From assembly GCA_050273025.1 (NCBI GenBank), contig CP158635.1, positions 12,214,001 to 12,278,000 of the forward strand: a DNA stretch of 64,000 bases, read 5' to 3'. The translations under genes were made by a program, and so were the position numbers. How positions within the stretch are numbered: the stretch's first letter is position 1; each line of letters opens with the position of its first letter. This stretch comes from Cenococcum geophilum (taxonomy: Eukaryota). This document shows, piece by piece, positions 34,013 through 59,442 of this stretch. The notes under the pieces were generated by a model. It was not told where the DNA came from and did no database searches. It was given only the letters and a program-made list of their open reading frames with translations.

Positions 34013-37000
34013 ATGCACTAATTAGATATCTAGTCGGCTATAATTTAACTAATATTTACTATATTTAGATTCTAAGTCTCTGCAAGGTTATTTAAACTAG
34101 AGATATTATATTTAATAAGAACTTGTTCTATAACCCTAAGGGTTAAAATATTAACTACCTACTAAGGGAAGTATTAGAAGATACCCTCTAGATAATTAGT
34201 TTACTAAAACCTCTCTATAAGGATAAATCTAAGGATAAGTCTATCCTATATAAACCTACCTTAAATATAGATTAAATAACTATACCTAAATTAAACGATT
34301 TGGTAGAGCCTTCTATAAAGGATACTAAGTAGTTACTAAATTCTAGTAGAATAGTATTTTTAGATATACTAGAAACAAATACTATACTAGGAGGACTTTA
34401 AGACGATATCTTAGATATAATTAAAGTAATTCCTACCTAGCTAAGCAGTTTACTAGAACTATTAAATACCGCTCTATAAACTAATAAAGTCTTAGCTAAA
34501 CCTTCTACTAACCTTACCCTACTAGAAGGATTAGAAAGAATTTAATATTAAGTATTTATAATAGTACTAGCTAATCTATCTACCCTATTTAGTTACTATA
34601 CTAGATTAACTATAGGACTAGTAAAGGATATTAACCAAACTAGATTCTTATCCTTATCTCTATATTAAGATAATCTTCCTCCTAAACTAAAGAACCTTAA
34701 AGAGCTAAGAAAGCATCTATTAACTACCAGCTTTTAAAAGGCTATAGAAAAAGAATATAACAACCTAAAATAATAAGAAACGTTTAAATCTGTACTAAAA
34801 GTAGAGGTAAGTAATAAACAGATTCTACTACTAAAATAGGTCTTTAAATATAAGCTTAACAGCGATAGTTACCTTTAAAAGCTAAAAGCTTAACTATATA
34901 CCCATAGAGACCTATAGATTACTAAAGAAGAGACCTATGTAGTAACCCTAGCTGCTTAAATATTCCGTGCTCTTATAGCTATAGCAGCTACATTTAATTT
35001 GGAAATTTAATAGTATAATACTATAAATGTATTTATAAATGCTAAGCTTAGTAAACTAGTCTACTACTACTACCTAGAAGGATTTAATTAAAATAGATAT
35101 ATCCTAGAGCTATTTATAGCGCTCTATAGATTAAAAATATTACCACTACTATAGTATAAAGAACTTGCTAGTATACTAACTGCCTATTTACTAATAGATA
35201 ACTTATTGTCTTTTTTTACGTAGATAATATTGCTGTTCTATTTACTAAAAAGGACCTACTAAGACTAGAAGAATTTAAAGCTAAATTACTATAACAATAT
35301 AAGATCTATGCATTAGGAGACCTATAGTAGTTCCTAGGAATTTAAATTAAATAAGATTAACTAAGTTAAAAGCTCTAGCTTTACTAAGATTCCTATATTA
35401 AAAAGATAGCTAATTAATTTAATATTTAACTAGGTAGATTTCCTAAGTTACTACTTCCCGCTAAAGAACTAATTCCGTCCAACTAGTAGATAAACCCTTA
35501 AAGAACTCTAGCCTACTAGTAACGGGTTAGTTCGCTTATATATCTTACTATATTTAAAAGGCCTAATATTACTAAAACGTATTCTAAGCTGGCTAAATTC
35601 CTTACTAATCTAAATTAAAAGTACCTTAATATAGCAAACTAAGTAATTACCTATTACCTTAGAATAAAATCTATAGCTATTAAATATTCTAGTAAAGTAT
35701 TTAGAGTATATATATACTTTAAGAACCCTAAAGAAGAAGACGTTACCTTTTATAGAGCATTTAATATAGCATTTACAGACTATAAAGAAACTAGATAGAG
35801 CTCTTAAGAATACCTATTTATACTATATAGAGGACTAATTAATTAGAAAGCAACCCTATAAAGGTCCGTTACTTAATTAACTACTAATGTAGAACTTCTT
35901 TCCCTATCTACTACTACTATTAAGATTATCTAGTGGTAACGTTTCTTTAAAGCAATTGGCTTTAATTTAGAACGCGAATTTATCTTACTATATAATAATA
36001 TATAGACCGTACGCCTACTAAGACAGGATACACCAAAACTTAATACTAAGCTTTAATATATTAACATCTATTAGTATTAGCTTAGATAGGAGGTCTAAGA
36101 TAAAAAGATTAATGTCTAATAGATGTTACGGAGTAAGTATAAGCGGCGATAATATATAGCAAGGCAGATATTATTAAGCTATATACATAAACTATATAAG
36201 AAGTTAAGACGTTACATAAGGAAAGAAGGTAAGAAAATAGGAGGAAAGGGTATATATCGTTAACTTAGTTACTTAGTTAATACGTACACGGGGTAGAATA
36301 GGATTTAGGCAATAGTCCTAGCAAAACTTAGTAGGATTTAGTAGACTTAGCAGAATATAGCAGAATGTGGCAGATTACTATAGATTATTATTAAATTGCC
36401 GTTAGATTACTATTAGGCTGCTATTTTATAGTTAGTCTCTAATTACTAAGTTGGTAGAAATAGGTAGATATATATAAGGTATTATAGGGGTGTCCCATAA
36501 TAGTATCCCCCCTTTAAACTTAAGCTTTTGTAAAATAGGGCTATAGTAGTTCTAGGTAAAGTTTATAAAAGTCTTCTACGGCTTATATAAGTCCTATAAA
36601 GTTAACGGGTTCCTATAAGGGCTTAGTATAGCCTTTCCACTTTATAAGATATATATATTAGCGTTTCCGTTTATTATACTTAATATTATTAATTCTTTTA
36701 ATAAAGTATTTATCCTTACTATCCACCTTAACTAGTAGGGGAAGGTTCTATATTTGTTTAGGCAGGGCGTTTAATATGGGGGCAGTAGGGTAAAGGACTG
36801 ACGTATAGAATACAGGGTGGATTTTAACTATATTAGGGAGCTTTAGTTGGTAAGCATAAGGAAAGATAACCTTTTTAACCTTATAAGGGCCAGCGTTCTT
36901 CTAACTAAGTTTTTTAATAGGTCGTTTTATATTTAGATTTCTTATATCTAGCTAGACGAAATTACTAACTTAATAGGCTAGTGCTAGGGTTTATTTCTTA

Positions 37001-40000
37001 TTCGCTGCGGCTTTATAGATAGATTAAGCCTATATTATCTTATTAATAAGAAACTGTTATAGTTCCTCTATCTTCTCTATAAATTAATTTACTTCTATAA
37101 CTTATAAGGCATAATAAACGGGGTAAGGAATATTACTAAAGGGTTTAAAACCTATTTGTAGGTGCTAGCCGTAATTGGCTAGGAATGGGGAAACTTTTGT
37201 AGTTTCTAAAATGGAATTATTTGTAGTAAACTCGGCGAATATAAGCTAGTTAATTCAGTTATTCTATAAATATGACGTGTATATCTAAATATACTATTCT
37301 ATTATAGTATTTACGCGTTCTATTTAACTATCCGTTTCTAGGTAATATGTAATAAACAATAGTGCTTTAATATAGAGTTAAGTAGTTAGTTCTTTCTAGA
37401 ATACTAAGATAAACTAGCTACCTTTATTAGAGGTAATCGTTTTAAAGAGTCCGTAGAGATTTTATACGTAGTCTAGAAATAATTAGGTAATAGTAGGCGT
37501 TAATATATTAGGGCAGGCAATTAAGTATCTTATCTTAGATAGTTGGTTTATAACTACTATAATATTTATATAGCCTCTACTCTTAGGGAGGTTAATAATA
37601 AAGTTAATTAAGATATCCTCTTATCTTTAGTCCGGAATAGGCAGCGGCTTTAAAAGGCCGTTATATATCTTATATAAGGCTTTAGCTCGTTAATAGATAT
37701 AGTAGCTAAAGACGTACCTTCGTGTTATATTATACATATTTAGCTAGTAATACTCCCGTTAAAGTAGTTCTAAGATCTTTCCTTAGCCCAGGTAGCTGGC
37801 GATAGGTAGATATTATATATATTTTAGGAGCTTAAGCTTAAGCTTATTGTAATTAGGGATAACTAGACGGTTCTAGTAATATAAGCGGTTTCTATAGGCT
37901 TTATATTTACTTAAAGAAATCTTTTTAGAGCGTCTAATGCTATCTTATATTAGCTTAAGCATCTCTTAAATAAACTTATTATTTAGGTATTTATTAACTA
38001 TAATCTATTTAATTAATTAATTAGTTATTTTAAAGACGTATACTATAAGATCTTTAGTAGGAGGGTTAAATAGTTTAGGGTAAAGTAGGGTCTAATTTCT
38101 ATAAGAGCGCGCTTTTTTTAAGGCTAGCGCGTCTTACGAGCGTTAGGTTAGGGTATTAGGCTTTTAACCTTAGATATCTAGGCGGTATATAATTAAAAAT
38201 TGGAAATAGGATAGATATTCTAACTAGCGGGCCTAATAATAGCTTATCTGTTTTATGGTTGTAAAGTACTATAGATTCTTATAGTCGCTAAGGACCTTAA
38301 TTAGAAATCTGGTGCCTTTTAGTTTAGGTCACCATTATTTAAAATATCTAATAATAGCCAGTAACTCCTTATCGTAGATTTTATAGTTATATTTAGCTAG
38401 GCTTAGTTGTTCTAAGTAGTATACTATAGGGTATAATACTCTATCTTTGTTATATTAAGATAGAATACCTTTAGTAATATAGTTGGATAAGTTAGATTCT
38501 ATAATACTTATTTAGTTTAGGTTAAAGTGTTAAAGTATAAGTATAGTAGTAAATATAACCTTTAGATAAGTAAAGGCCTTCTTATATTCCTTATTAAAGA
38601 TAAAGGCTTTATTCTTTTAGGTTAGAGCTATAAGGGGTAAAACTAAGGTAGAGAAGTTATTAATAAATTATTAGTAGAAATTGGCAAATCCTATAAAGGC
38701 TCTTATATCCTTAACATTCTTAGGTTCTTACCAGTTTATAATTACTTTAACTTTCTTTAAGTCTATTTATATACCGTTTATAAAAATAAAAAGCCTAAGG
38801 TATAGGACTTCTATTTTATAGAATTTATATTTATCTATATTTAATTATAGACTAGCTCCTTATAGGGCTTATAAAATAAGATTAACGTATTTCCGGTATT
38901 CAGTTAGGTTATTACTATATATTAGGATATCGTTAATATAAGCAGTATAGAAGATATTTAGGTAAGGACGTAGGGTATTATTTATATAATATTAAAACAA
39001 GCTCGGAGCGTTTATAAGGCTAAAGAGTATTACTAAGTACTTAAATAATCTATATTAGGTATAAAACGTAGTAAGCTATTTATCTCCTTTTATAATACGG
39101 AGGCGGTTAAATATAGAGATAATATTAAGCTTTGTGTAAAAGCGAGCCTTATTTAGTTAGTTTAGCATCTCTTATATTAGCGGGATTGGATATTAGTTCT
39201 TAATAGTAACAGCGTTAAGAGCTTAGTAGTTTACACAGAAACGTAGTCTACTGCTTAGTTTCTTAATAAAGATTACTAATACAGCTATAGGTAAAGAGCT
39301 TACTCTAATAAATCCTTTACTTAGGTTTTCGTCTAGGTACTTCTATAGCACTTAAAGTTTATTTTAGAACATCCTATATAGGGGTCTAAATCTAGGCTGC
39401 TTCCCTTCTTTAAGTATAATCTTATAATTATATAGTTAGTATTCTAGTAGCTTATCGGCTTCCTTCTATAAGAATGCCTTTAGGCGGTTATAGTACTTTA
39501 CTAGTACCTTTATAGTAGGGTTAGTGTACCTTTTTAGTACTAAGGCCTTCTTAATATCAGCTATAGTGACAGTAAAGATTATATATTTAGGTTTCTTAGC
39601 AAGTTACGCTAGCGGGGTAGCTCTAATTATATAGATATCTAGGGTGTTAAGCTTGCTTAGATTGTCCATAGTTTCTTATTTAGTATTAGGTATAAAGTTA
39701 GTATTAGATTTAGGTTTGAGTTCTTTAAAAATCCTTTTTATAGTAAAATACTAGTTTTTCTAGTATTTTCGTATATTAAGCTTAAGCTTTTACTTAGCTT
39801 AGGACAGTATAGTACTTAATAATAACTTATAGAATTTAGTAGAGTTTTTAAATCCTTAGTGGATATCGGTAGAATTCTTATATTAGTGGAATTTAGTAGA
39901 ATTCTTATGCTAGTGGAATCTGGTAGATTCCTTAGGCGTAAAGTAGATATTAGTAGAAATTTTAGACTAGTATATTCTAGTGAATTTTTTAGATTTTAGT

Positions 40001-41454
40001 TTTAGGTCTAAGCAGCAAGTTATAAGGCACTTCTGCTTATAATAAGAGGCGGTAAATAGAAGCTTAAGATTGTCCTAATTAATAGTTACCTTATATAGCT
40101 TTATCTAGGATTATTTAAGGATTACTAAGTAACCTAAGGTAGTAACAAAAAGCTTAATTAGTTCTTTATAGTTTAGGTATTAGAGTCTTAGGGCTACCAC
40201 GTAGGTAATACGGCCTAAGATAATGCGTTTACTATTAAATCTAAATACGTTAATATGCTAGTTAAGGGGGGTTAGGATAAAACTATTATCTTATATAAAG
40301 ATCCTATTAATAAATCCTATACCGCTAGCTCCTGTATTAATTAGGATTTAAGCATTAGCCTATTAACTATTCTACTAAAGGCGGCAGTTAATAGTTATAC
40401 TACGGTCCTAAGAGTTAGAGTTCGTAACGTTAAATGCATTTAATAAGATCCTATAGTAGAGCTGTCCTAAAGAGCGACTTAGCTCTAGGACCTTTTTTTT
40501 AAAGGTAATTAGGGCGGGGTTCTTATAGGACATTAGTTAGAGCTTCGTCCTTATAAACGGTGCTTACTAGATAAAGGGCTAGAACTAGATAAGGAGGGCT
40601 ATAATTAATAGCTTAAGATTATACGCGATAAATAGTTATTAACGTTAGCTATTTATAAATTGTTTTAGGGCGTAGGTAAGGGAATAAGGCAGTATTTTAA
40701 GATATAGTCCTTACTTCCGCACTTAAAGTAAAGGCTTAGCTTAATACGTCTTTTTTATTTAGGGGACCCTAGTAAGGCGTACTCTAGGATTCTAGTGTTA
40801 ATATCTATGGCGTTAGGGTACTTAGGCTAAAATAATAACTTAGTAAACGTTTATAGGGTTACCGTATTATATTAGGGGGCGGGCTTCGGTATTAGGCGTA
40901 GTATATTATTATACCGTTTATTAATAACGTTTATATAGGCATTAAGGGCTCCTAATAGGTCTACGCCTATTAGGGGGGTTTTTAGTTTAGGGCTTAGGGA
41001 TTTAATAAGGCTATTAACTAGTGCAGAGTTATTCTAGCCAGTCTCCCTTACGTAATAGTTAAATTTAGAAAAGTATACTAGGAAACTTTTCGTTCCTTAA
41101 GCTATATAGTTTATTTTTCTTTAAGCAGTAGCTTAGCAGTTCGGATTACCGTATATAGTTTTAAGAAGTATAACTAGACTTTATACTAAGTTTAGTTAAA
41201 GGGGTTTAATAAGGTTAGCTACCTCTTCTCTTAGTTAACTTAGGGCGTAATAGAGTCGGTTAGCTTTAGTTAGATAACGGTCAGCATTACTAGTTAGCTT
41301 ATTCTTAAGCTAGCTTAAGAATAATTAGAGCTCTTACTATTTACTAGTAAATACTAAAGGGTTAAATAGCCGTTTAGATTATTACGGTATACATTGGGAA
41401 AATATTCGCAGGATGAGATTTAAGTTGACTTTAGTGTTCGCGTTTCGCGTAATT

Positions 41455-41970
41455 AACATGTAATTTAACTAACTCGACACGTAATTAACCAACTTAATAC
41501 GCAATTGACCAACTTAACACGCAATTTGACTAACTCGACACGCAGTTGACCTACTTAATATGCAATTTAACTAACTTAACACGCAGTTGACCTACTTAAC
41601 ATACAATTTAACTAACTTAATACACAGTTGACCTACTTAATATGCAATTTAACTAACTTAATATATAGTTGACCTACTTAATATATAATTTAACTAACTT
41701 AACACGCAGTTGACCTACTTAATATGCAATTTAACTAACTTAATACGTAGTTGACCTACTTAATATATAATTTAACTAACTTAATACGCAGTTAACCTAC
41801 TTAATATGTAATTTAACTAACTTAACACGCAGTTAACCTATTTAATATATAATTTAACTAACTTAACACGCAGTTGACCTACTTAATATATAATTTAACT
41901 AACTTAATATGTAGTTAACCTACTTAATATATTTAAAAGTTAAATAACACGCAGTTAACCTACTTAACAA
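41455..41970 (+). repeat. Minisatellite 1: alternating 20/21-bp units (41-bp dimer)
   Basis: ACGCAGTTGACCTACTYRAY alternating with ATGCAATTTRACTAACTYRAY; roughly 25 monomers; variants are mostly RIP-type. Confidence 0.95.
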
Positions 41971-42063
41971 CTTTAAAAGCTAACTGTATATTCCTTGACA
42001 TGCAATTAAGGTAAAGTTATATACTAATTACGCAAATGAATTTTTACACAGTTTTATTACTTA

Positions 42064-42390
42064 GAGGCTCTGCATAAGGCTCTATACGAAGCTCTACACG
42101 AAGCTCTGCGTACAGAGGCTCTGCACGAAGCTCTGCACGAAGCTCTGCACGAAGCTCTGCACGAAGCTCTGCACGAAGTTCTGCACGAAGCTCTACACGA
42201 AGCTTTGCATAAGGCTCTACACGAGGCTCTACACGAAGCTCTGCGTACAGAGGCTCTGCCCGAAGCTCTACGTACAGAGGCTCTGCGCGAAGCTCTGCGT
42301 ACGGAGGCTCTGCACGAGGCTCTGCACGAAGCTCTGCACGAGGCTCTGCGCGAAGCTCTGCGTACAGAGGCTCTACACGAAGCTCTGCAT
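42064..42390 (+). repeat. Minisatellite 2: 12-bp unit with a 15-bp variant
   Basis: GARGCTCTRCAC / GAAGCTCTGCGTACA; reads EALH / EALRT in one stop-free frame. Confidence 0.95.
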
Positions 42391-42509
42391 CGGGTCCCCG
42401 CTATATTCCCGATAGCCTCTCCTATGTAGCCACCTTATTTTTTTTATCCATCCATCCTTCCTTACATCCTCCCTACCTAGGGAGGCACCAGAACGGCAGC
42501 TAGCAGAGG

Positions 42510-42852
42510 ACCGTCGCCAGAACTAGACGACCGTTACCAGAACCAGACGACCGTCGCCGTCGCCAGAACTAGAACACCGTTACCAGAACCAGACGACCGT
42601 CGCCAGAACAAGACAACCGTCGCCAGAACCAGACGACCATCGCTAGAACTAGACGACCGTTACCAGAACCAGACGACCGTCGCCGTCGCCAGACGACCGT
42701 TACCAGAACCACACGACCGTCGCCAGACGACCGTCGCCAGAGCTAGACGACCGTCGCCAGAACCAGACGATCGTCGCTAGAACCAGACAACCGTTACCAG
42801 AACTAGACAACCGTCGCCAGAACCAGACAACCGTTGCCAGAGCTAGACGACA
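42510..42852 (+). repeat. Minisatellite 3: 20-bp unit with 14- and 26-bp variants
   Basis: ACCGTCGCCAGAACCAGACG, about 17 copies. Confidence 0.95.
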
Positions 42853-42904
42853 ACGACTAGCCAGCAAACACTATAAACGATTTAATCGATCAATTAAATT
42901 AAGG

Positions 42905-43318
42905 CAGCACAGACAGGTAGGCACAAACAGGGAGATGCTAACGAGTAGGTAGATGCTGACAGGTAGGCAGATGCAGACTGGTAATTAGATACAGATAGGT
43001 AAGCAGATGCAGATAGGTAAGTAAATGCTGACGGGTAGGCAGATATAGATAGGTAGGCAGATATAAATAGGTAGGCGATGCAGACAGGTAGGCAATGCAG
43101 ATAGGTAGGCAATGCAGATAGGTAGGCGATGTAGATAGGTAGGTAATGTAAACAGGTAGGCGATGTAGATAGGTAGGCGATGCAGACAGGTAGGCGATGT
43201 AGACAGGTAGGCAATGCAGATAGGTAGGCGATGCAGACAGGTAGGCAATGTAGATAGGTAGGCGATATAGGTAGGTAGGTAGATAGGTAGGTAGGTAAGT
43301 TAATAGGTAGATAGGTAG
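42905..43318 (+). repeat. Minisatellite 4: 17/18-bp unit followed by (AGGT)n
   Basis: ATGCAGAYAGGTAGGCR, about 20 copies, then an AGGT/AGAT tetranucleotide run. Confidence 0.95.
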
Positions 43319-44149
43319 AAGAGAACCATTGCTATATTATATTAAATTATCTAAAATAATATTTATTTTGCTAGCCTTATAAATAGCCTTAAAGTAGCTT
43401 TTATTTATTTAAAATATGCTATTAGTATAAAAGAGGTAAATATAATTGTGGTTACTAAATGCGCAGATTACTGGCAGGTTTTGCGTAGGTTGCGTGTAGG
43501 TTGCGCGTAGACTGCGCGCAGGCTGCGTGTTAAAAAAACACGATATAGGCTAGTCGGTTGAGTTGCTAAATGCCCTTAACTGCGCGCTAATTGCGTCAAC
43601 CACTAACCATTAAGGCCATTGGTAGGGTACCATATTTTGCCGATGTAGTAGTTAGCTTAGGGTAAATAGCTACTATAGGTTCGGGGCCCACGTTCTACAT
43701 ATTTATCTCTAAAGATAGTATTCGGTCTTAAGGCCCTAACGTAGGCATCTTAAGTATGCGGATTTCTTCTTAGAGGTCCTTAATTATTTGCTAGTATTAT
43801 ACTTCTTATTTAGCTTATCGTTAATTTAAAGTAGTTTAGTTTTATATAAGGGCGTTTATAAAAGACTTCTATATTTCTACTAGTTATTTTTAGAGTATAG
43901 ATATAATACTAACGGCCGTTATAGGGGCTTTAGGGTTATTCTATATTTTGGGGGTAGTATATAAAGTTAACGCAATATAGTGTTACAGAGTAAGTATAAG
44001 TAGCAATAATATATAGTAAGGTAGATATTATTAAGCTATATATATAAACTATATAAGAAGTTAAGACGTTATATAAGGAAAGAAGGTAAAAAACGGGAGG
44101 AAAGGGTATATATTGTTAACTTAGTTACTTAGTTAATACGTATACAGGG

Positions 44150-47100
44150 TGTAATAGAGCCTTATAGCAAGAACTACGGTAGACTCGTTAATGGGCTAGG
44201 TATATAGGTAATGCAGGAAATCAACAACGTAATAATAACTAGTAGAGTGGTTGCCTAATAGATTAACTTTAATTATATTCTAAGAATTACTATAAAGAAG
44301 GAACTATCTAGGTAGGGACTAAGGGTCCTTAAATATACAACCGTACTCCTAAGAAATCCTTCTTATACGTGATGTACGTGATATATATAAGGTACGTAAG
44401 TTCCTCTCGTTTCTTGCGTAGTATACGTAGTATATTATATAACCTTAGTTACTATTCCTCGTTATATAGTTCTATGGGTTCTATCTTAAACTATGCTTAT
44501 ATTAACCAACTAGCTTCTTCTAACTCCTCTCTAAGTAGTTATAACATTTTACTTAAAGCGTCCGTAATACTATCTCCCTTCTTTTTATCTTTGTCCTTAA
44601 AGATACCTAGTATCTCTAGGTTGTTTACTAGAGGTATAATATCTATCTAATTAATTTAGTTAATATCTTTACTTATTATACTTAAAGCCTCTTCTTCTTT
44701 ATACGCGCAACGTTATATATATATAGTTGCTTCTATACTATTGCTTAGTAAAACAATACCGTCTCCATGTTCTCGTTGTGTGAAAAAGAGGTTAGTTTGT
44801 ATTACGTTAGCAAGTCCTTTATTTTAGCAACCCTCTTTTTGCTTAGAGTGTACTAAAGCAAATATCCTAATTGTCTTGCGATGTTCGCTCTTCTTCTAAC
44901 GCTAAATATACGCGTCCTATTACTCTTAATAATCTTTAAGTCCCCTAAGTAATTTATTATAGGGTTTTATATTTAGTCTACTGCTATAAAGCTTAATAGT
45001 AACCTAGTGTAGGCCCTTACTAAGCTTAAGCGTTTTTGTAATGTGGAATAGAAGGCCCTAAATACTTATATTACGGTATCTGCCTATCTCCTTCGTCTTA
45101 AGAAAGTTTATAAAAAGGTTCGTTTTAAGGAGTAGAAACTTATAGAATAAGATTTATAGGAACTTAGTAATAAAAAAACGGATTCTCTTTTAATAGAGAA
45201 GGAAACAACTCTAAGTAGTTCGGCAATCGTTCCTCCTAGGTCCCCCTTAGGTAGTTTATTCCTTAATAATCCTTCTTTATTAATGCTACCTAACCTTTTT
45301 TCTTCTGATACTTCTATACCTTTCCTATAATATTCTTTAAATTTTTTAGTAGCTCCTAGGTAGTCTTATTATAGCCTATCCACTTTACTTTATACTATAT
45401 TTTATTGTCTATGTCCTTATAATTAACGATCTTTAAAACTTACTATTTATCTTCCTCTTATCCTCTATACATGTCTGCTTTATAGACTAGTGGCTTAATA
45501 TTCCTATATACTGGCTTTAGTATCGCGATATACTATACGGGATAGATCTTTATTTTAGCTAGTAGGTTTAACTTAAATGTAATTAGTAAAATTCTTTTTA
45601 TAATTTTAAAAGGTCCTAGTTTAACATAGTCTAACTTCTTACTTAGTTGTTAACTCTTAAAATTTTTATATAGTAGCTATACTTTATCCCCCCCCCTTAA
45701 GATCTAGTCCCTTAGATCTCTTAGTATTATAATACTTTTTTATTCTTTACTATACCACCTTTACTATTTCTATAAGGTTTCTATAAAGATTTATTAGTAT
45801 CTCTATTCTTTACTTAGCTATACTACTCGTTCTTTTCGCTTAATATAGCAATAGTAATATTCCTATTCCTTCTTAAGGTGTTGTATTATATGCGAACTAT
45901 ATAACTAGTAATAATAATACCCAATTGTTCTGTATATAATTAATATAGTGTCTTAGATACTACTTTAGTATTTAATTTAATCTTTCCGTTTAACTGTCTG
46001 TCTGCAGATAATATATAGTAGAAGTTACTGCTTAAACTCTTTGCTTCGCTAAAAATACCTTCTAAAATACTGCTATAAATCTTGGATCTCTATCTAATAT
46101 AATTTTGCTTAGTGCTCCGTGTCTTATAAACACTTCTTTAATATAGATTTTAGCGATATCTTCCGCTAAGATTTCTTCTGTATATACTATAAAGTATCCC
46201 TACTTTATTAGCTTGTTTACTATTACTAAGATTGCGTTATAATCTTACCCGGTAATAGGATCTCTTAATTTTAGCAACTTTATAATAAAGTCCTATAATA
46301 TAACCTCCTATGGTCTCTCTAGTATTTTAATAGGTTATAGCCCTTTATATAGCTTATACCTTATTAGTTTATTTCTTTAGTAATCTAGATATTCCTTTAT
46401 AACTTATCTTGCTAGTCCCTAAATTCTATTAATAATATACTCCTCCTAGAGTCTTAATACTAAGCCTATAGCTCCGTTATGTCCTTAAGTTAGTCCCTTA
46501 TAAAATAACTTAATAAACTCTTTTATAATATTTCTTAGCATATATATTACTTCTTAGTTTTTATACTACTCTAAGTTTAGATCCTCTACCTATATATCTT
46601 AGATCTTTTATAACTATATACTCCCTAATACCTTATAGGTCTAACTAATTTCTCTTATTACTATAATTTTTAGATAATTGTATCTAATTAATCTATCTAT
46701 ATCTTTTCGTAGTAAAGCCCCTAATAGCTTTTCGTTATTTTATAATTTAGCCTTTTTACTTAGAGTATCTACTTATATATTGTTTGTACCCTTAGTATAC
46801 TAAATCTTAAAATGGTATTTTATAAGCATCTCTACCTATCTAACCTATCTCTAATTAAGTTCTTTCGTTATTAAGAACCCTGTTAGGTTTTTATAATCTA
46901 TCTTAACTATAAATAGCTTCTCTATACCTTATAAGAATGCTCTTTATTTCTAAAGTACTATAACTATACCTAATAACTCCTTATTATAAATGTTATAATT
47001 TAATTCCGGTAGTATTATCTTTCGACTATAGTATGCCACAAGGTGCCATCCGTTTTTGTATTTTTATAGGAAGTATACCCCTAGTATAAAGTTTAATATA

Positions 47101-53909: not shown

Positions 53910-54158
53910 TGTCACGGGACTTACACGCTCTCACGTCCCTGCGCGTTTTGACGTTCTTGACCCGTGCTCACGTTCGTCCCGAGACAGCTACGCACGTTCC
54001 CCTACAACCCCTATTTATACCCGACCTGGCACATAAAGAATCTTCTTCTTTATCCAAATGTCTTTGTATTAACCACGCATAGTTACGCGTACGTAGCCTT
54101 CTTCAATTACTACCCTGTTTAGTATATTGTATTCCAGCTCGTGCCTACTTCCGTAATA
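53910..54158 (+). repeat. Solo LTR nested in the 3' LTR of H, related to the TRIM LTR
   Basis: TGTCACGGGA...TTCCGTAATA; perfect TSD TGTAT; shares CACGTTCGTCCCG..CTACGCACGT..ACCCCTAT with the reverse complement of 22242-22440. Confidence 0.9.
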
Positions 54159-55619
54159 TGTATAAGGTGTTATGGGGGTATCCCATAATAGTACCCCCCC
54201 TTTAAACTCGAGCTTCTATAAGATGGGGCTGTAGTAGTTCTAGGTAGAGTTTATAAAAGTCTTCTACGGCTTATATAAGTCCTATAGAGTTAACGGGTTC
54301 CTATAAGGACTTAGTAAAGCCTCTCTATTTTATAAGATATATATATTAGCGTTTCCGTTTATTATACTTAATATTATTAATTCTTTTAATAAAGTACTTA
54401 TTCTTACCATCTACTTTAATTAATAGGGAAGGGTCTTATATCTATTTAGGCAGGGCGTTTAATAGAGGGGTAGTAGGGCGGAGGACTAACGTATAGAATA
54501 TGGGGTGGATTTTAACCGTATTAGGGAGCTTTAGTTAGTAGGTATAAGGAGAAATAACCTTTTTAACCTTATAAGGGCCAGCGTTCTTCTAATTAAGTTT
54601 CTTAATAGGTTGTTTTATATTTAGATTTCTTATATCTAGCCAGACAAAATTACTAATTTATTAGGCCGGTGCTGGGGTTTATTTCTTATTCGCTACGGCT
54701 TTATAGATAGATTAAGCCCATATTATCTCATTAGTAAGAAACTATTATAGTTCCTCTATCTTCTCTACGAATTTATTTATTTTTGCAACTTATAAGGTAT
54801 AATAAGCGGGGTAAGGAACATTACTAAAGGGTTTAAACCCCATTTATAGGTGCTAGCCGTAATTGGCTAAGAATAGGGAGACTTTTGTAGTTTCCAAGAT
54901 AGAATTATTTATAGTAAACTCGGCGAATATAAGCCAGTTAATCTAGTTATTCTATAAATACGACGTATATATCCAAATATACTATTCTATTATAGCATTT
55001 ATGTATTCCGTTTAGCTATCCGTTTCTGGGTAATATATAGTAGATAATAGTGCTTTAATACGGAGTTAAGTAGTTAGTTTTTTCTAGAATGCTAAGTTAA
55101 ACTAGCTGCCTTTATCAGAGATAATCGTTTTAGGGAGTCCGTGGAGTTTCTATACGTAATCTAGAAATAGTTAGGCGATAGTAGGCGTTAACATATTAGG
55201 GCAGGCGATTAAGTGTCTTATTTTAGATAGTTGGTTTATAACTACTATAATATTTATATAGCCTCTACTCTTAGGAAGGTTAATAATAAAGTCGATTAAG
55301 ATATCCTTTTATCTTCGGTTTAAAACAGGTAGTAGCTTTAAAAGACCGTTATACGTCTTATACGGGGCTTTAGCTCGTTAGTAGGTGTGGCAGCTAGAGA
55401 CGTACCTTTATATTATATTATATTATATATATTCGGCTAATAATACTCCCGTTAGAGTAGTTCTAGGATTTTTTCTTGGTTTAGGTAGCCGGCGACAGGT
55501 AGATCATATACGTATTTAAGGAGTTTAAGCTTAAGCTTATTATAATTAGGGATAACTAGGCGGTTTTAGTAATATAAGCGATTTCTATAGGCTTTGTATT
55601 TATTTAAAGAATTTTTTTT

Positions 55620-56031
55620 TCAATCCATTGTATTATACTACGTACAATTCTGCGCATGCAGCCTCTAGGCTATAGCGCTATAGTCCTATATACATGAATC
55701 CTTTTTAGGTAGCTTAATATATACTAGTAACTATGTCCTAATAGTTTATAAGCCTCTACGCTAGAGGTTTACCGCTCCCTAGTAAGATACTAGGTTACTA
55801 TTAACTATTAGGTAGTATAAAAACAGTAGAAAATCAGTAAAAATAAGAAATCCTAACGCCTGTCCCTGTCCCTTTTTTTATATTTTATTTCTGTCCTTTT
55901 GCTTACTATTATCTGTTTGCTAGAATTCTAGTAAGAGTTCCCTTCTTCTAAAGATCCTACTGCTTTTAGCCACTTTCCAGTAGCTATCCTTGTCTTATTT
56001 AGAAATAGAAAAAGTACCTCTTTTCCTTTCT
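55620..56031 (-). mobile_element. 5'-truncated LINE (ORF2 C-terminus plus 3' UTR) inserted in H pol
   Basis: Absent from the homologous F site (about 37915). Flanked by a GAATTTTTTTT duplication (55609-55619 / 56032-56042). The minus strand starts KGKEVLFLFLNKTRIATGKW and ends in an A-run. Confidence 0.75.
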
Positions 56032-59000
56032 GAATTTTTTTTAGAGCGTCTAATGCCATCTTATATTAGCTTAAGCGTCTTTTAAATAAACTTATTATTT
56101 AGGTATTTGTTAACTATAATCTATTTAATTAATTAATTAGTTATTTTAAGGACGTATACCATAAGATCTTTAGTAGGAGGGTTAAATAGTTTAGGGCGAA
56201 GTAGGGTCTAATTTTGGTAAGAGCGCGCTTCTTCTAGGGCTAGCGCGTCTTGCGAGCGTTAGGTTAGGGTATTAGGCTTTTAGCCTTAGACGCCTAGGCA
56301 GTATATAATTAAGAATTAGAAACAAAATAGATATTTTAACTAGCGGGCCTAATAATAACTTAGCTGTTTTATGGTTATAAAGTACTATAGGTTCTTATAG
56401 TCGCTAAAGACCTTAATTGGAAATCCAGCGCCTTTTAGTTTAGGTCGCTATTATTTAAAATATCTAATAATAGCTAACAATTCCTTATCGTAGATCTCGT
56501 AGTTGCATTTAGCTAGGCTTAGTTGTTTTAAGAAGTATGCTATAGGGTATAATACTCTATCCTAATTAAATTAAGATAAGATACCTCTAGTAACGTAGTT
56601 AAATAAGTTAGCTTTTATAACACTTATTTAGTTTAGGTTAAAGTGTTAAAGTATAGGCGTAGTAGTAAATATAACCTTTAGATAGGCAAAGGCCTTCTTA
56701 TATTCCTTATTAAAGACAAAGACTTTATCCTTTTAGGTTAGAGCTATAAGGGGTAAAACTAGGGCGGAGAAGTTATTAATAAACCGTTAATAGAAATTAG
56801 CAAATCCTATAAAAGCTCTTACGTCCTTAATATTCTTAGGTTCTTGCTAGTTTATAATTACTTTAACTTTTTTTAGGTCTATTTATATACCGTTTATAAA
56901 AATAAGGAGTCTAAGGTATAGGACTTCTATTTTATAGAACTTGTATTTATTTATATCTAATTATAGACTAGCTCCATATAGGGCTTATAAGACAAAGTTA
57001 ACGTATTTCCAATATTCGGTTAGGTTATTACTATATATTAGAATGTCATTAATATAAGCAGTATAGAAGATATCTAGGTAGGGGCGCAGAGTATTATTTA
57101 TAAAATATTAAAACAAGCTCAGAGTGTTTATAAGGCTAAAGGGTATTACAAAGTACTTAAATAGTCCATATTAGGTATAAAATGCAGTAAGCTATTTATC
57201 CCCTTTTATAATATAGAGACGGTTAAATACAGAGATAATATTAAGCTTTGTATAGTAACAAGCCTTACTTAGTCGGTTTAGCGTCTCTTATATTAATAGA
57301 ATCGGATATTAGTTCTTAACGGTAACAGTATTAAGAGCTTAGTAGTCTATATAGAAGCGTAGACCGCCGCTAGGTTTCTTAATAAAGATCACTAATACGG
57401 CTATAGGCAATAAGCTTGCTCTAATAAATCCTTTACTTAGGTTCTTATCTAAATACTTTTATAGCACTTAGAGTTTATTTTAGGACATCCTATATAAGGG
57501 TCTAAATCTAGGCCACTTTCCTTCTTTAAGTATAATCTTATAGTTATATAGTTGGTATTTTAGTAGCTTATTAGCTTCCTTTTATAAGAATACATCTAGG
57601 CGATAATAATACTCTATTAGTACCTTTATGGTAGGGTTAGTGTGCTTCTTTAGTGCTAAGGCCTTCTTAATATCGGCTATCGTAATAGCAAAGATTATAT
57701 ACTCGGGTTTCTTAGCAAGTTGCGCTAGCGGGGTAGCTCCAATTATGCGGATATCTAAGGTGCCGAGCTCGCTTAGATTGTCCATAGTTTCTTATTTAGG
57801 TTTAGGTTCGGTATTAGGTACGAAGTTAATATTAGATTTAGGTTCGGGTTCTTTAAGAATTCTTTTTATAGTGGAATACTAGTCCTTCTAATATTTTCGT
57901 ATATAGAGCTTAAGCTTTTACTTAGCTCGGGGCGGTGCAGTACTTAGTAATAACTTATAGAATTTAGTGGAGTTTTCGGATCCTTAGTGGATATCAATGG
58001 AATTCTTAGGCGTAGAGTAGGCATTAGTAGAAATCTTACGTCGGTGAAATTTAGTGGAATTCCTAGGTTAGTGGGATTTAGTAGATTCCTTAGGTATGGG
58101 GTAGATAGTTATAGAAATTTTAGACTAGTAAATTCTGGTGGATTTTTTAGATTTTAGTCCTAGGTCTAAGCAACAAGTTATAAGGCACTTCTGCTTATAA
58201 TAGGAGGCGGTAAATAGAAGCTTAAGGTTATTTTAATTAATAGTTACCTTATATAGCTTTATCTAGGGTTATTTAAGGATTACTAAGTAACCCAGGGTGG
58301 TAACGAAAGGTTTAATTAATTCTTTATGGTTTAGGTATTAGAGTTTTAGAAATACTACGTAAGTAATACGGCCTAAGACGGTGCGTTTACTATTAAATCT
58401 AAATACGTTAATATGCTAGTTAAGGGGGGTTAGGATAAAACTATTATCTTACGCAAAAATCTTATTAATAAATCCTATGCCGCTAGCTCCTATTTTAATT
58501 AGGATTTAAGCATTAGCCTATTAACCATTTTACCGAAGATAGCAGTTAATAGTTATACTATGGTCCTAAGAGTTAGAGTTTATAACGTTAAATATATTTA
58601 ACGAGATCCTATAGTAGAGCTATCCTAGAGAGCAACTTAGCTCTAGAACCTTCCTTTTAGAGGTAATTTAGGTAGGGTTCTTATAGGACGTCGGCTGTAG
58701 CTTTATCCTTATAAATGGTACTTACTAAATATAGGGCTAAAACTAGGTAGAGATTAGGGACGGTAACCAGAAGATCAATGCGGTAAACGGCTGCTAGTAT
58801 TAGCCGTTTATAATTTATATTTAAGTATAGGGACGGAGTAGTAGTTAGAGAGGTAAGAGTTACTTTTATATTTAAAGCAGAGGCCTAGCTTAATACATTA
58901 TTCTTATTTAGAGGACCCTAGTAGGGCGTACCTTAGGGTTTTAGTATTAATATCTATAGCGTCGGGGTGCTTAGGCTAAGATAATAACTTAGTAGACGTT

Positions 59001-59442
59001 TACGGGGTTACTATATTATATTAAGGAGCAGGCTTCGGTATTAGGCGTAGTATATTATTATATTATTTATTAATAACGTTTAAGCAGGCATTAAGGGCTC
59101 CTAGTAGGTCTACGCCTATTAGGGAGGTTTTTAGTTTAGAGCTTAGGGATTTAATAAGGCTATTAATTAGCGCGGAGTCGTTCTAGCCTATTTCCTTTAC
59201 GTAATAGTTAAATTTAGAGAAGTATACTAGGAAACTTTTCGTTCCTTAAGTTATATAGTTTATCTTTCTTTAAGTAGTAGCTTAGCGGTTTAGGTCACTA
59301 TATATAGCTTTAAGAAGTACAACTAGGCTTTACACTAAGTTTAGCTAAAGTAGTTTAATAAGGTTAGCTGCATCTCCTTTTAGTCAACTTAGGGCGTAAC
59401 AGAGTTAGTTAGCTTTAGTTAGGTAACAGTTAGCGTTATTAG

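Follow-up and report, generated by a model that had tools for sequence, protein, structure and literature searches.

A minisatellite-filled element of Cenococcum geophilum is a non-autonomous Plavaka transposon with an array-forming core shared among Plavaka families

The window analysed here is a stretch of 64,000 nucleotides from Cenococcum geophilum (contig CP158635.1, positions 12,214,001 to 12,278,000; genome G000, 178 Mb), which is AT-rich and holds no open reading frame (ORF) of 150 aa. An insertion of 2254 bp filled with tandem arrays occupies positions 41392-43645. This window element is a non-autonomous derivative of Plavaka, a group of transposons in the CMCT clade. We regard it as highly probable that it descends from a 20-kb Plavaka family, named family A below, and that its middle part, a core of three arrays and their spacers, was passed between Plavaka families. 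Positions of the element and its parts refer to the forward strand.

Longer copies with the same terminal inverted repeats (TIRs) and a transposase, for which the original prediction had advised a search, were found. Five of these family A parents were followed to the far end; they measured 19.5-20.1 kb and had the same right terminus, with a 2-bp target-site duplication (TSD) in 5/5. The transposase of parent L094 matched the Pfam Plavaka profile PF18759 with an E value of 8e-45, and its frame (X-read) contains the motifs CxxC, as CTMC, and HxxxH, as HTLIH. Seven of the nine unspliced top PF18759 matches end in the left terminus of the window element, and the left 14-bp TIR (41392-41405) is the terminus that lies 3' of the transposase in the 20-kb parent. 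The window element aligned to parent A at nt 2-656 and 1943-2254 only: the left arm (41392-42047) corresponds to parent nt 2-428 (E 9e-69), and the right arm (43334-43645) was aligned with an E value of 3e-87. The element, which exists in hundreds of copies, thus retains ~650 bp from one end of the parent and ~310 bp from its other end, and the five parent copies are without the core.

Only five stop-free frames, of 150-200 aa, were present in the five parents, and all of the 123 matches scored among 266 PF18759 candidates contained stops. Of the two-state columns among the five parent copies, 3933/4011 were transitions, and near-exclusive transitions between repeat copies are the signature of repeat-induced point (RIP) mutation. 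Because all scored transposase matches carry RIP stops, the window element is probably immobile now. The idea that the derivatives are younger than the parents was unsupported, as the RIP load in the shared right 250 bp ranged over 0.14-0.42 for 33 derivatives, with a mean of 0.29, and over 0.14-0.37 for the five parents. Several other features of the parents were recorded. A fragment of a ZNFX1-type helicase lies in the cargo of G000:C6:7492391-7512334 (L119, L112, L094) and of four sister copies, and the parents contain internal arrays of 117, 153, 54/18 and 21/32 bp. The flanks of L098 (C1, ~0.5-1 kb past the parent right end) and L093 hold dispersed arrays of 17/34 bp and 35 bp, which are unrelated to the core.

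CMCT elements have 5'-CA..TG-3' ends and TSDs of 2-5 bp, and PlavakaB elements have 5'-CATCA..TGATG-3' ends and TSDs of 2-3 bp (Kojima 2025, PMC12730594). The window element was assigned to non-autonomous Plavaka because it shares its ends with a parent that encodes a Plavaka transposase, and because CA..TG ends and a 2-bp TSD fit this definition; the earlier opinion that the element fits no named superfamily cleanly is thereby superseded. CA..TG termini are present in family A, and some copies had RIP-type TA variants. EnSpm/CACTA proper was rejected, as the ends are CAT..ATG and not CAC..GTG and a 3-bp TSD was seen in 0/34 left/right pairs. The CACTA profile Transposase_21 (PF02992) gave 0 matches in the genome, with its control also silent. 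The HINE and DINE elements, which are partners of Helentrons, have a Helitron-type partner and no 2-bp TSD with symmetric TIRs. They were likewise rejected, given the symmetric TIRs, the exact 2-bp TSD and the DDE-type partner found here.

The termini were searched genome-wide and TSDs and arrays were tabulated, as the original prediction had proposed. There were 546 candidates for the left end and 710 for the right, 40 of each being scored, and the exact left-end pattern had 435 matches in the genome, compared with 0 for the reversed control. The TSD table comprised 41 loci (40 and the window) from the best-scoring matches. Among them were 34 left/right pairs, in all of which the TSD measured exactly 2 bp and in none 3 bp. 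One pair (L050, a nested-copy artefact with one A element inside another) was dropped, which left 33 complete copies with the TSDs TA (23), CA (3), AA (3), TT (2), GA (1) and TG (1), against a TA share of 18% in the flanks. The TSD of family A is therefore any 2 bp with a bias for TA, and not a fixed TA. The complete copies were 1732-2940 bp long and fell into two subtypes of 19 and 14 copies. The order of anchors was constant, and the spans with arrays 1, 3 and 4 were 196-585, 166-1050 and 293-550 bp, respectively; array 2 spanned 48-657 bp in the 26 measurable copies. With 435 exact left ends and array lengths that vary among copies, the prediction of a non-autonomous DNA transposon that disperses minisatellites was borne out. 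Apart from these copies, two A left ends stand back to back, ~1.2 kb apart, in L012/L051 (G000:C4:1025573-1026786).

The window copy has the 5' end CATTGGGAAAATAT and the 3' end ATATTTTGCCGATG. Its 14-bp TIRs (41392-41405 and 43632-43645) are complementary at 12/14 positions, and those of less mutated copies at 13/14; in an inverted-repeat scan, this TIR was not among the 25 longest pairs listed. TA is present at each flank (41390-41391 and 43646-43647). An empty site in the same host family, L057, has a single TA, at which both window flanks overlap by exactly 2 nt. This agrees with the predicted clean insertion with imperfect TIRs and a TA duplication, and excludes the alternative parse with a 3-bp TSD (GTA), which was also found in 0/34 pairs. 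Moreover, the insertion is absent from L057, contrary to the case in which copies of the host family would hold the arrays at the same position.

The host is a RIP-degraded Ty3/Gypsy long terminal repeat (LTR) retrotransposon on the minus strand, at approximately 36001-44572 with an uncertain left limit. An LTR lies near 44218-44572, and matches to reverse transcriptase, RNase H and SH3_Tf2 were found in the left flank. The insertion was originally placed in gag. The insertion does lie between LTR and pol, but Pfam searches in six frames gave no gag match in the host, so that "gag" denotes this position only. The RIP index was 0.74 in the element and 0.24 in the host, so the element is less RIP-marked, with the caveat that the compositions of the two differ. 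Elsewhere in the window, a second copy of the host Gypsy family was seen at 54156-59440, interrupted near 59440 by another LTR, so that this copy cannot serve as an empty-site control.

Tandem Repeats Finder recovered all four arrays and the short 11-bp repeats of the original prediction, namely a 41-bp unit (20/21 dimer) with 11.8 copies at 41485-41967, a 12-bp unit with 25.7 copies at 42067-42389, a 20-bp unit with 17.4 copies at 42504-42851, a 17-bp unit with 18.9 copies at 42952-43279, and an 11-bp unit with 4.1 copies at 43483-43527. The five units are mutually unrelated, as had been stated (best local scores against 500 shuffles, p ≥ 0.10 in 10/10 pairs). The four arrays are of two origins. 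Array 1 (41455-41967, 20+21 bp), as also the 11-bp repeats in the right arm (43474-43527), comes from the parent ends; ~3.5 units of array 1 are present in the subterminal region of the parent and 11.8 here. Arrays 2-4 belong to the core, which starts with array 2 (42067-42389, 12/15-bp unit). Array 2 is not in parent A, and a degenerate form of its motif occurs inside family C copies and in L300. It is followed by spacer 2 (42390-42503), the best conserved segment of the core, array 3 (42504-42851), spacer 3 (42852-42928), which is shorter than in D-ended elements and L170, and array 4 (42929-43318), whose 17/18-bp unit grades into (TAGG)n and is represented by a 14-bp or 4-bp unit in other families. 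A coding role of the arrays was rejected, since the long frames that stay open across them are artefacts of repetition and no ATG-initiated ORF of 50 aa exists in the window copy. Spacer 2 includes the marker motif (42392-42413) and 6-bp hairpin arms (42389-42394/42408-42413); the hairpin was considered as a relic of a tiny element, an idea that was rejected given the lack of a TSD and the constant base following the arm.

Outside family A, the set formed by arrays 2-4 and the intervening spacers first came to light by chance, in a neighbouring element with different ends, called B. The spacer-2 motif had 1011 exact matches in the genome, compared with 0 for the reversed control, and ~1000 core copies of ~2.5 kb would amount to an estimated 1.4% of the genome, roughly. 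Every fifth of the first 100 core matches was inspected. Of these 20 sites, 8 had A ends, 4 B, 4 D and 2 E, one had a B-like right end and one was rearranged, so that at least one Plavaka-type end or near relative was present in 20/20. Among the first 100 core matches, 55 had an exact A, D or E end no more than 3.5 kb away, compared with a random mean of 1.1. To judge by these sequence contexts, the core is a separate module that is carried between the own ends of at least four Plavaka families.

The B ends (353 candidates) are the ends of a 21-kb Plavaka family, in which both ends were read in 2/4 loci. The core was present in 21/21 short B-ended copies (20 loci), of which 19/21 had a 2-bp TSD, and it was absent from parent B (4 loci). 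In two B copies, L145 and L142, the flanks do not match (TG/CA and GA/CT, of which the former are reverse complements). The 21.0-kb parents (L150/L106/L151; L152/L102/L153) start with a 168-bp hairpin of two left ends and show an old internal duplication of ~5 kb with ~73% identity. The derivatives with B and E ends likewise start with hairpins of two left ends.

Plavaka family C has as its terminus the D left end, for which there were 136 exact matches, and complete D copies had the TSDs GA/GA and TA/TA. Two copies of parent C, read over 27-29 kb from the D end, were without the core except for a weak array-2 motif with E values down to 2e-26. These parents (L091/L092/L157; L096/L156/L158) are >27 kb including nested insertions, and contain an internal duplication as well as 81-bp arrays. 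The E ends, with 320 matches when left and right are taken together, bracket a 19.8-kb span with the C-terminus of a Plavaka transposase (37% identical to B, E 1e-40), and one E copy had the TSD AA/AA. Beside the family E transposase, a DUF6532 match was noted on the minus strand of L178:3-2300, and L179 appeared SNF2-like by eye; the Pfam search of L178 and L179 returned only DUF6532.

A fifth end type, F, was found in metagenomes (L186, TSD TT/TT). All end types start with C-A/G-T-C and make 2-bp TSDs; families B and C/D start with CATCA, A with CATCG, and E and F with CGTCA. Of the 80 metagenome loci analysed out of 120, 57 had A, B, D or E ends and 23 had none; there were 9 matched end pairs and 0 mixed left/right types. 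Other arrangements were noted in single loci. Another end type with 22-bp repeats lies upstream of the core in L258, and in L191 a truncated D-ended core adjoins an intact-looking gene without RIP that is HET-domain-like by eye. L170 (1899-2090), whose left end is unmatched, and L174 are core copies with unmatched ends and an inverted or palindromic array 2, and may be intermediates of an end swap.

No alignment is obtained between the end types, and the transposases of families A, B and C are 27-42% identical in a RIP-damaged reading. Spacer 2, by comparison, is 91-93% identical across B-, D- and E-ended elements of this genome, and differs by 1-3 transversions over 92-135 aligned positions in 11 elements. 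Because spacer 2 is so similar while the ends do not align, the core probably moved between families, by nesting and trimming. The window element itself would have been cut and pasted in trans by the transposase of parent A. A core-bearing element would have jumped into an element of another family, deletions would have trimmed the inner ends, and the new outer ends could then have mobilised the core; template switching during gap repair may have led to the same outcome. In line with this, 28-45 bp of the parent A right end were found inside 4/4 E-ended elements tested, and a D-like piece inside 2/2 F-ended elements tested (scores 63 and 72, compared with shuffle maxima of 35 and 37). One B junction lies exactly at an inner inverted TIR. 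These relics of other ends, together with this junction and the A-in-A nest of L050, fit nesting followed by trimming. The route by which Pack-CACTA hybrids arise is a related one (PMC6379663).

The arrays would have grown from few units, separately in each family and copy. Slippage and unequal exchange are mechanisms by which tandem arrays expand. In L170 and in D-ended cores, the 20-bp unit is repeated only a few times and the unique spacers are longer; in A and B copies, array 3 reaches as many as 58 units and array 2 as many as 160. Expansion of the arrays therefore probably took place inside their carriers. Degenerate array-2-like repeats occur in both orientations in L300 (G000:C1:8662110-8662380, foldback-like; a resemblance judged by eye) and in the interior of family C, and could represent a source of array 2 in foldback arms.

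Several points weigh against the joint reading of a family A derivative with a transferred core. The 143 unscored PF18759 candidates could include intact transposases. By its termini the element appears PlavakaB-like; families B and D match CATCA..TGATG exactly, but the family A termini (CATCG..CGATG) share 4/5 bases with the published signature, the fifth being G instead of A. The loci of the TSD table are not a random draw, and in 8/41 of them no matching right end was found within ~3.8 kb (the exact core motif persists in 5 of the 8, and the right end of one is divergent). Among the first 100 core matches, 45 were without an exact A, D or E end, in a test confined to these three end types. 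The A relic in the E elements could be sequence shared by parent E itself, and the D relic is of low complexity. The source of the core was not found in the parents, of which parent C was read short of its far end and one parent E over 4.6 kb.

Data from 4 of 24 listed runs were mapped on one D copy, L164. In the 12% of run X21 that was read, 5677 of 9.29 million reads fell on L164, mostly 90-95% alike. Coverage was for the most part 140-1500 in the core, at most 255 in the left arm and 0-5 at the right end. First mates lay ~8:1 to >100:1 on one strand over L164, which is the forward sense of the element under the usual library convention. Runs X22-X24 contained next to none of the search words. 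Three contig sets showed the same contrast, with summed depths of mostly 1e4-6e5 against ~3e2-5e2 or less, where the summed depth is inflated in repeats, two of the sets are RNA by guess only, and X1 and X2 look like one data set. The contrast in depth between core and D right end exceeds the ~7-fold copy ratio of core to D ends. The core reads are pooled over all copies, and loose ends suggest that one or two variants dominate. One raw RNA run thus documents one-strand transcription of core sequence, for the pooled copies. A structured RNA, ribozyme or tRNA head was rejected: Rfam gave no RNA family and only sub-threshold hairpin matches on the L170 palindrome, no tRNA head was found in the core, folding z-scores were -2.1 to +0.7, and 45 spacer-2 sequences showed no covariation (covariation term -0.22; in this alignment, A3, the search pattern accounts for the invariance of the first 28 columns, and 3 of 45 rows stop after the motif).

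The transcription bears on whether the core is itself a selected module, which would act as promoter, non-coding RNA or array of binding sites and keep the element that carries it open or unsilenced, so that ends which capture it out-multiply those without it. This would add selection to the joint reading and is compatible with it; we consider it possible but give it limited credence. The one-strand signal in X21 and the contig sets point in this direction, and the core lies within 3.5 kb of 32/45 A and 13/16 D left ends in the first 18.9 Mb of C1, with several others beside transposase matches. In VANDAL elements, anti-silencing motifs also gather as tandem repeats (PMC5735166). On the other side, RNA was mapped on the D copy only, the pooled reads may be read-through from a few gene-linked loci, and the similarity of 90-95% leaves room for a run from another strain or species. 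The contig depth is inflated in repeats, and the core has no Rfam family, tRNA head, covariation, notable folding score or ATG ORF of 50 aa. Furthermore, core-less E elements of ~0.5 and 1.3 kb exist, and founder effects could account for the dominance of the core. A bolder view, which we hold to be rather doubtful, makes the core a selfish level below the non-autonomous transposon: a transcribed, minisatellite-breeding cassette without ends or gene, which would have been re-housed in A, B, C/D, E and F after RIP death and kept because it boosts or unsilences the ends.

An abundant core RNA might instead have been retro-copied several times into small Plavaka elements, in the manner of SINE or MINE elements. 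Although the one-strand transcription of the core and the simple (TAGG/CAGG)n repeats at its end would suit such an origin, this is improbable, as 20/20 sampled sites had a Plavaka-type end or near relative, relics of other Plavaka ends flank the core, and no poly(A) or separate TSD was seen around it in the sequences inspected. A single old non-autonomous ancestor of all core families, with ends that changed in step with the transposases, would account for the common C-A/G-T-C start and the 2-bp TSDs. However, near-identical cores, with their 1-3 transversions in spacer 2, sit inside unalignable ends of families with 27-42% transposase identity, which makes such co-divergence very improbable. 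Tc1/mariner elements have TA-only TSDs. An origin in that group, in ESTA (likewise TA-only; PMC12730594) or in no known group was refuted, because 10/33 TSDs are not TA and the parent encodes a Plavaka transposase, even though TA flanks the window copy and 23/33 copies against 18% TA in the flanks.

With the joint reading retained, the classification of the window element is settled, and Plavaka, a recently defined group, gains a non-autonomous family that is well sampled and has TSD statistics. The core that the families share would represent one cassette that passes among transposon families with very different transposases. The graded series from 2-8 units to >50 in array 3 and up to 160 in array 2 offers a natural record of the birth and spread of minisatellites in a RIP-active fungus, and the variable arrays are candidate multilocus markers. 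If it is true that transcription of the core or its arrays aid spread, repeats would have a novel means of persisting beyond parents killed by RIP.

Compared with known systems, the elements described here share CA..TG ends, a 2-bp TSD and a Plavaka transposase with C(2)C and H(3)H with PlavakaB; the families in the accessible text of PMC12730594 are from Agaricomycotina, and neither non-autonomous members nor a shared array core are described there. Pack-CACTA elements of Arabidopsis (Catoni et al., PMC6379663) also have CMCT-type ends around an acquired middle, and their hybrids arise from neighbouring copies by terminal deletion. Their cargo is host gene DNA within one end family, whereas here one non-coding, repeat-growing core is held by the ends of at least four transposase families. 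A host chromosomal source of the core was not found, and the core was also absent from parents A and B as read. In VANDAL/VANC (PMC5735166), short motifs are likewise amplified as fast-changing non-coding tandem repeats; the likeness is an analogy only. Two further papers (PMC4522978, PMC5023957) merely counted tandem repeats in their accessible parts, and their supplements may hold repeat libraries with family A. An array-forming core common to several end types was not found in searches that covered the literature but not repeat libraries such as Repbase. CgHINE and DINE (Helentron/Helitron), pearl/CvA, Tetris and miDNA4 (PMC9659126) are also non-autonomous class II elements with variable central arrays and genome-wide distribution. 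They belong to other superfamilies and animal hosts, and the accessible text of PMC9659126 presents no array cassette common to several end types. Non-autonomous elements that spread internal arrays are thus known (PMC9659126), and what is apparently new here is one transcribed, array-forming core housed in the ends of four or five transposase families.

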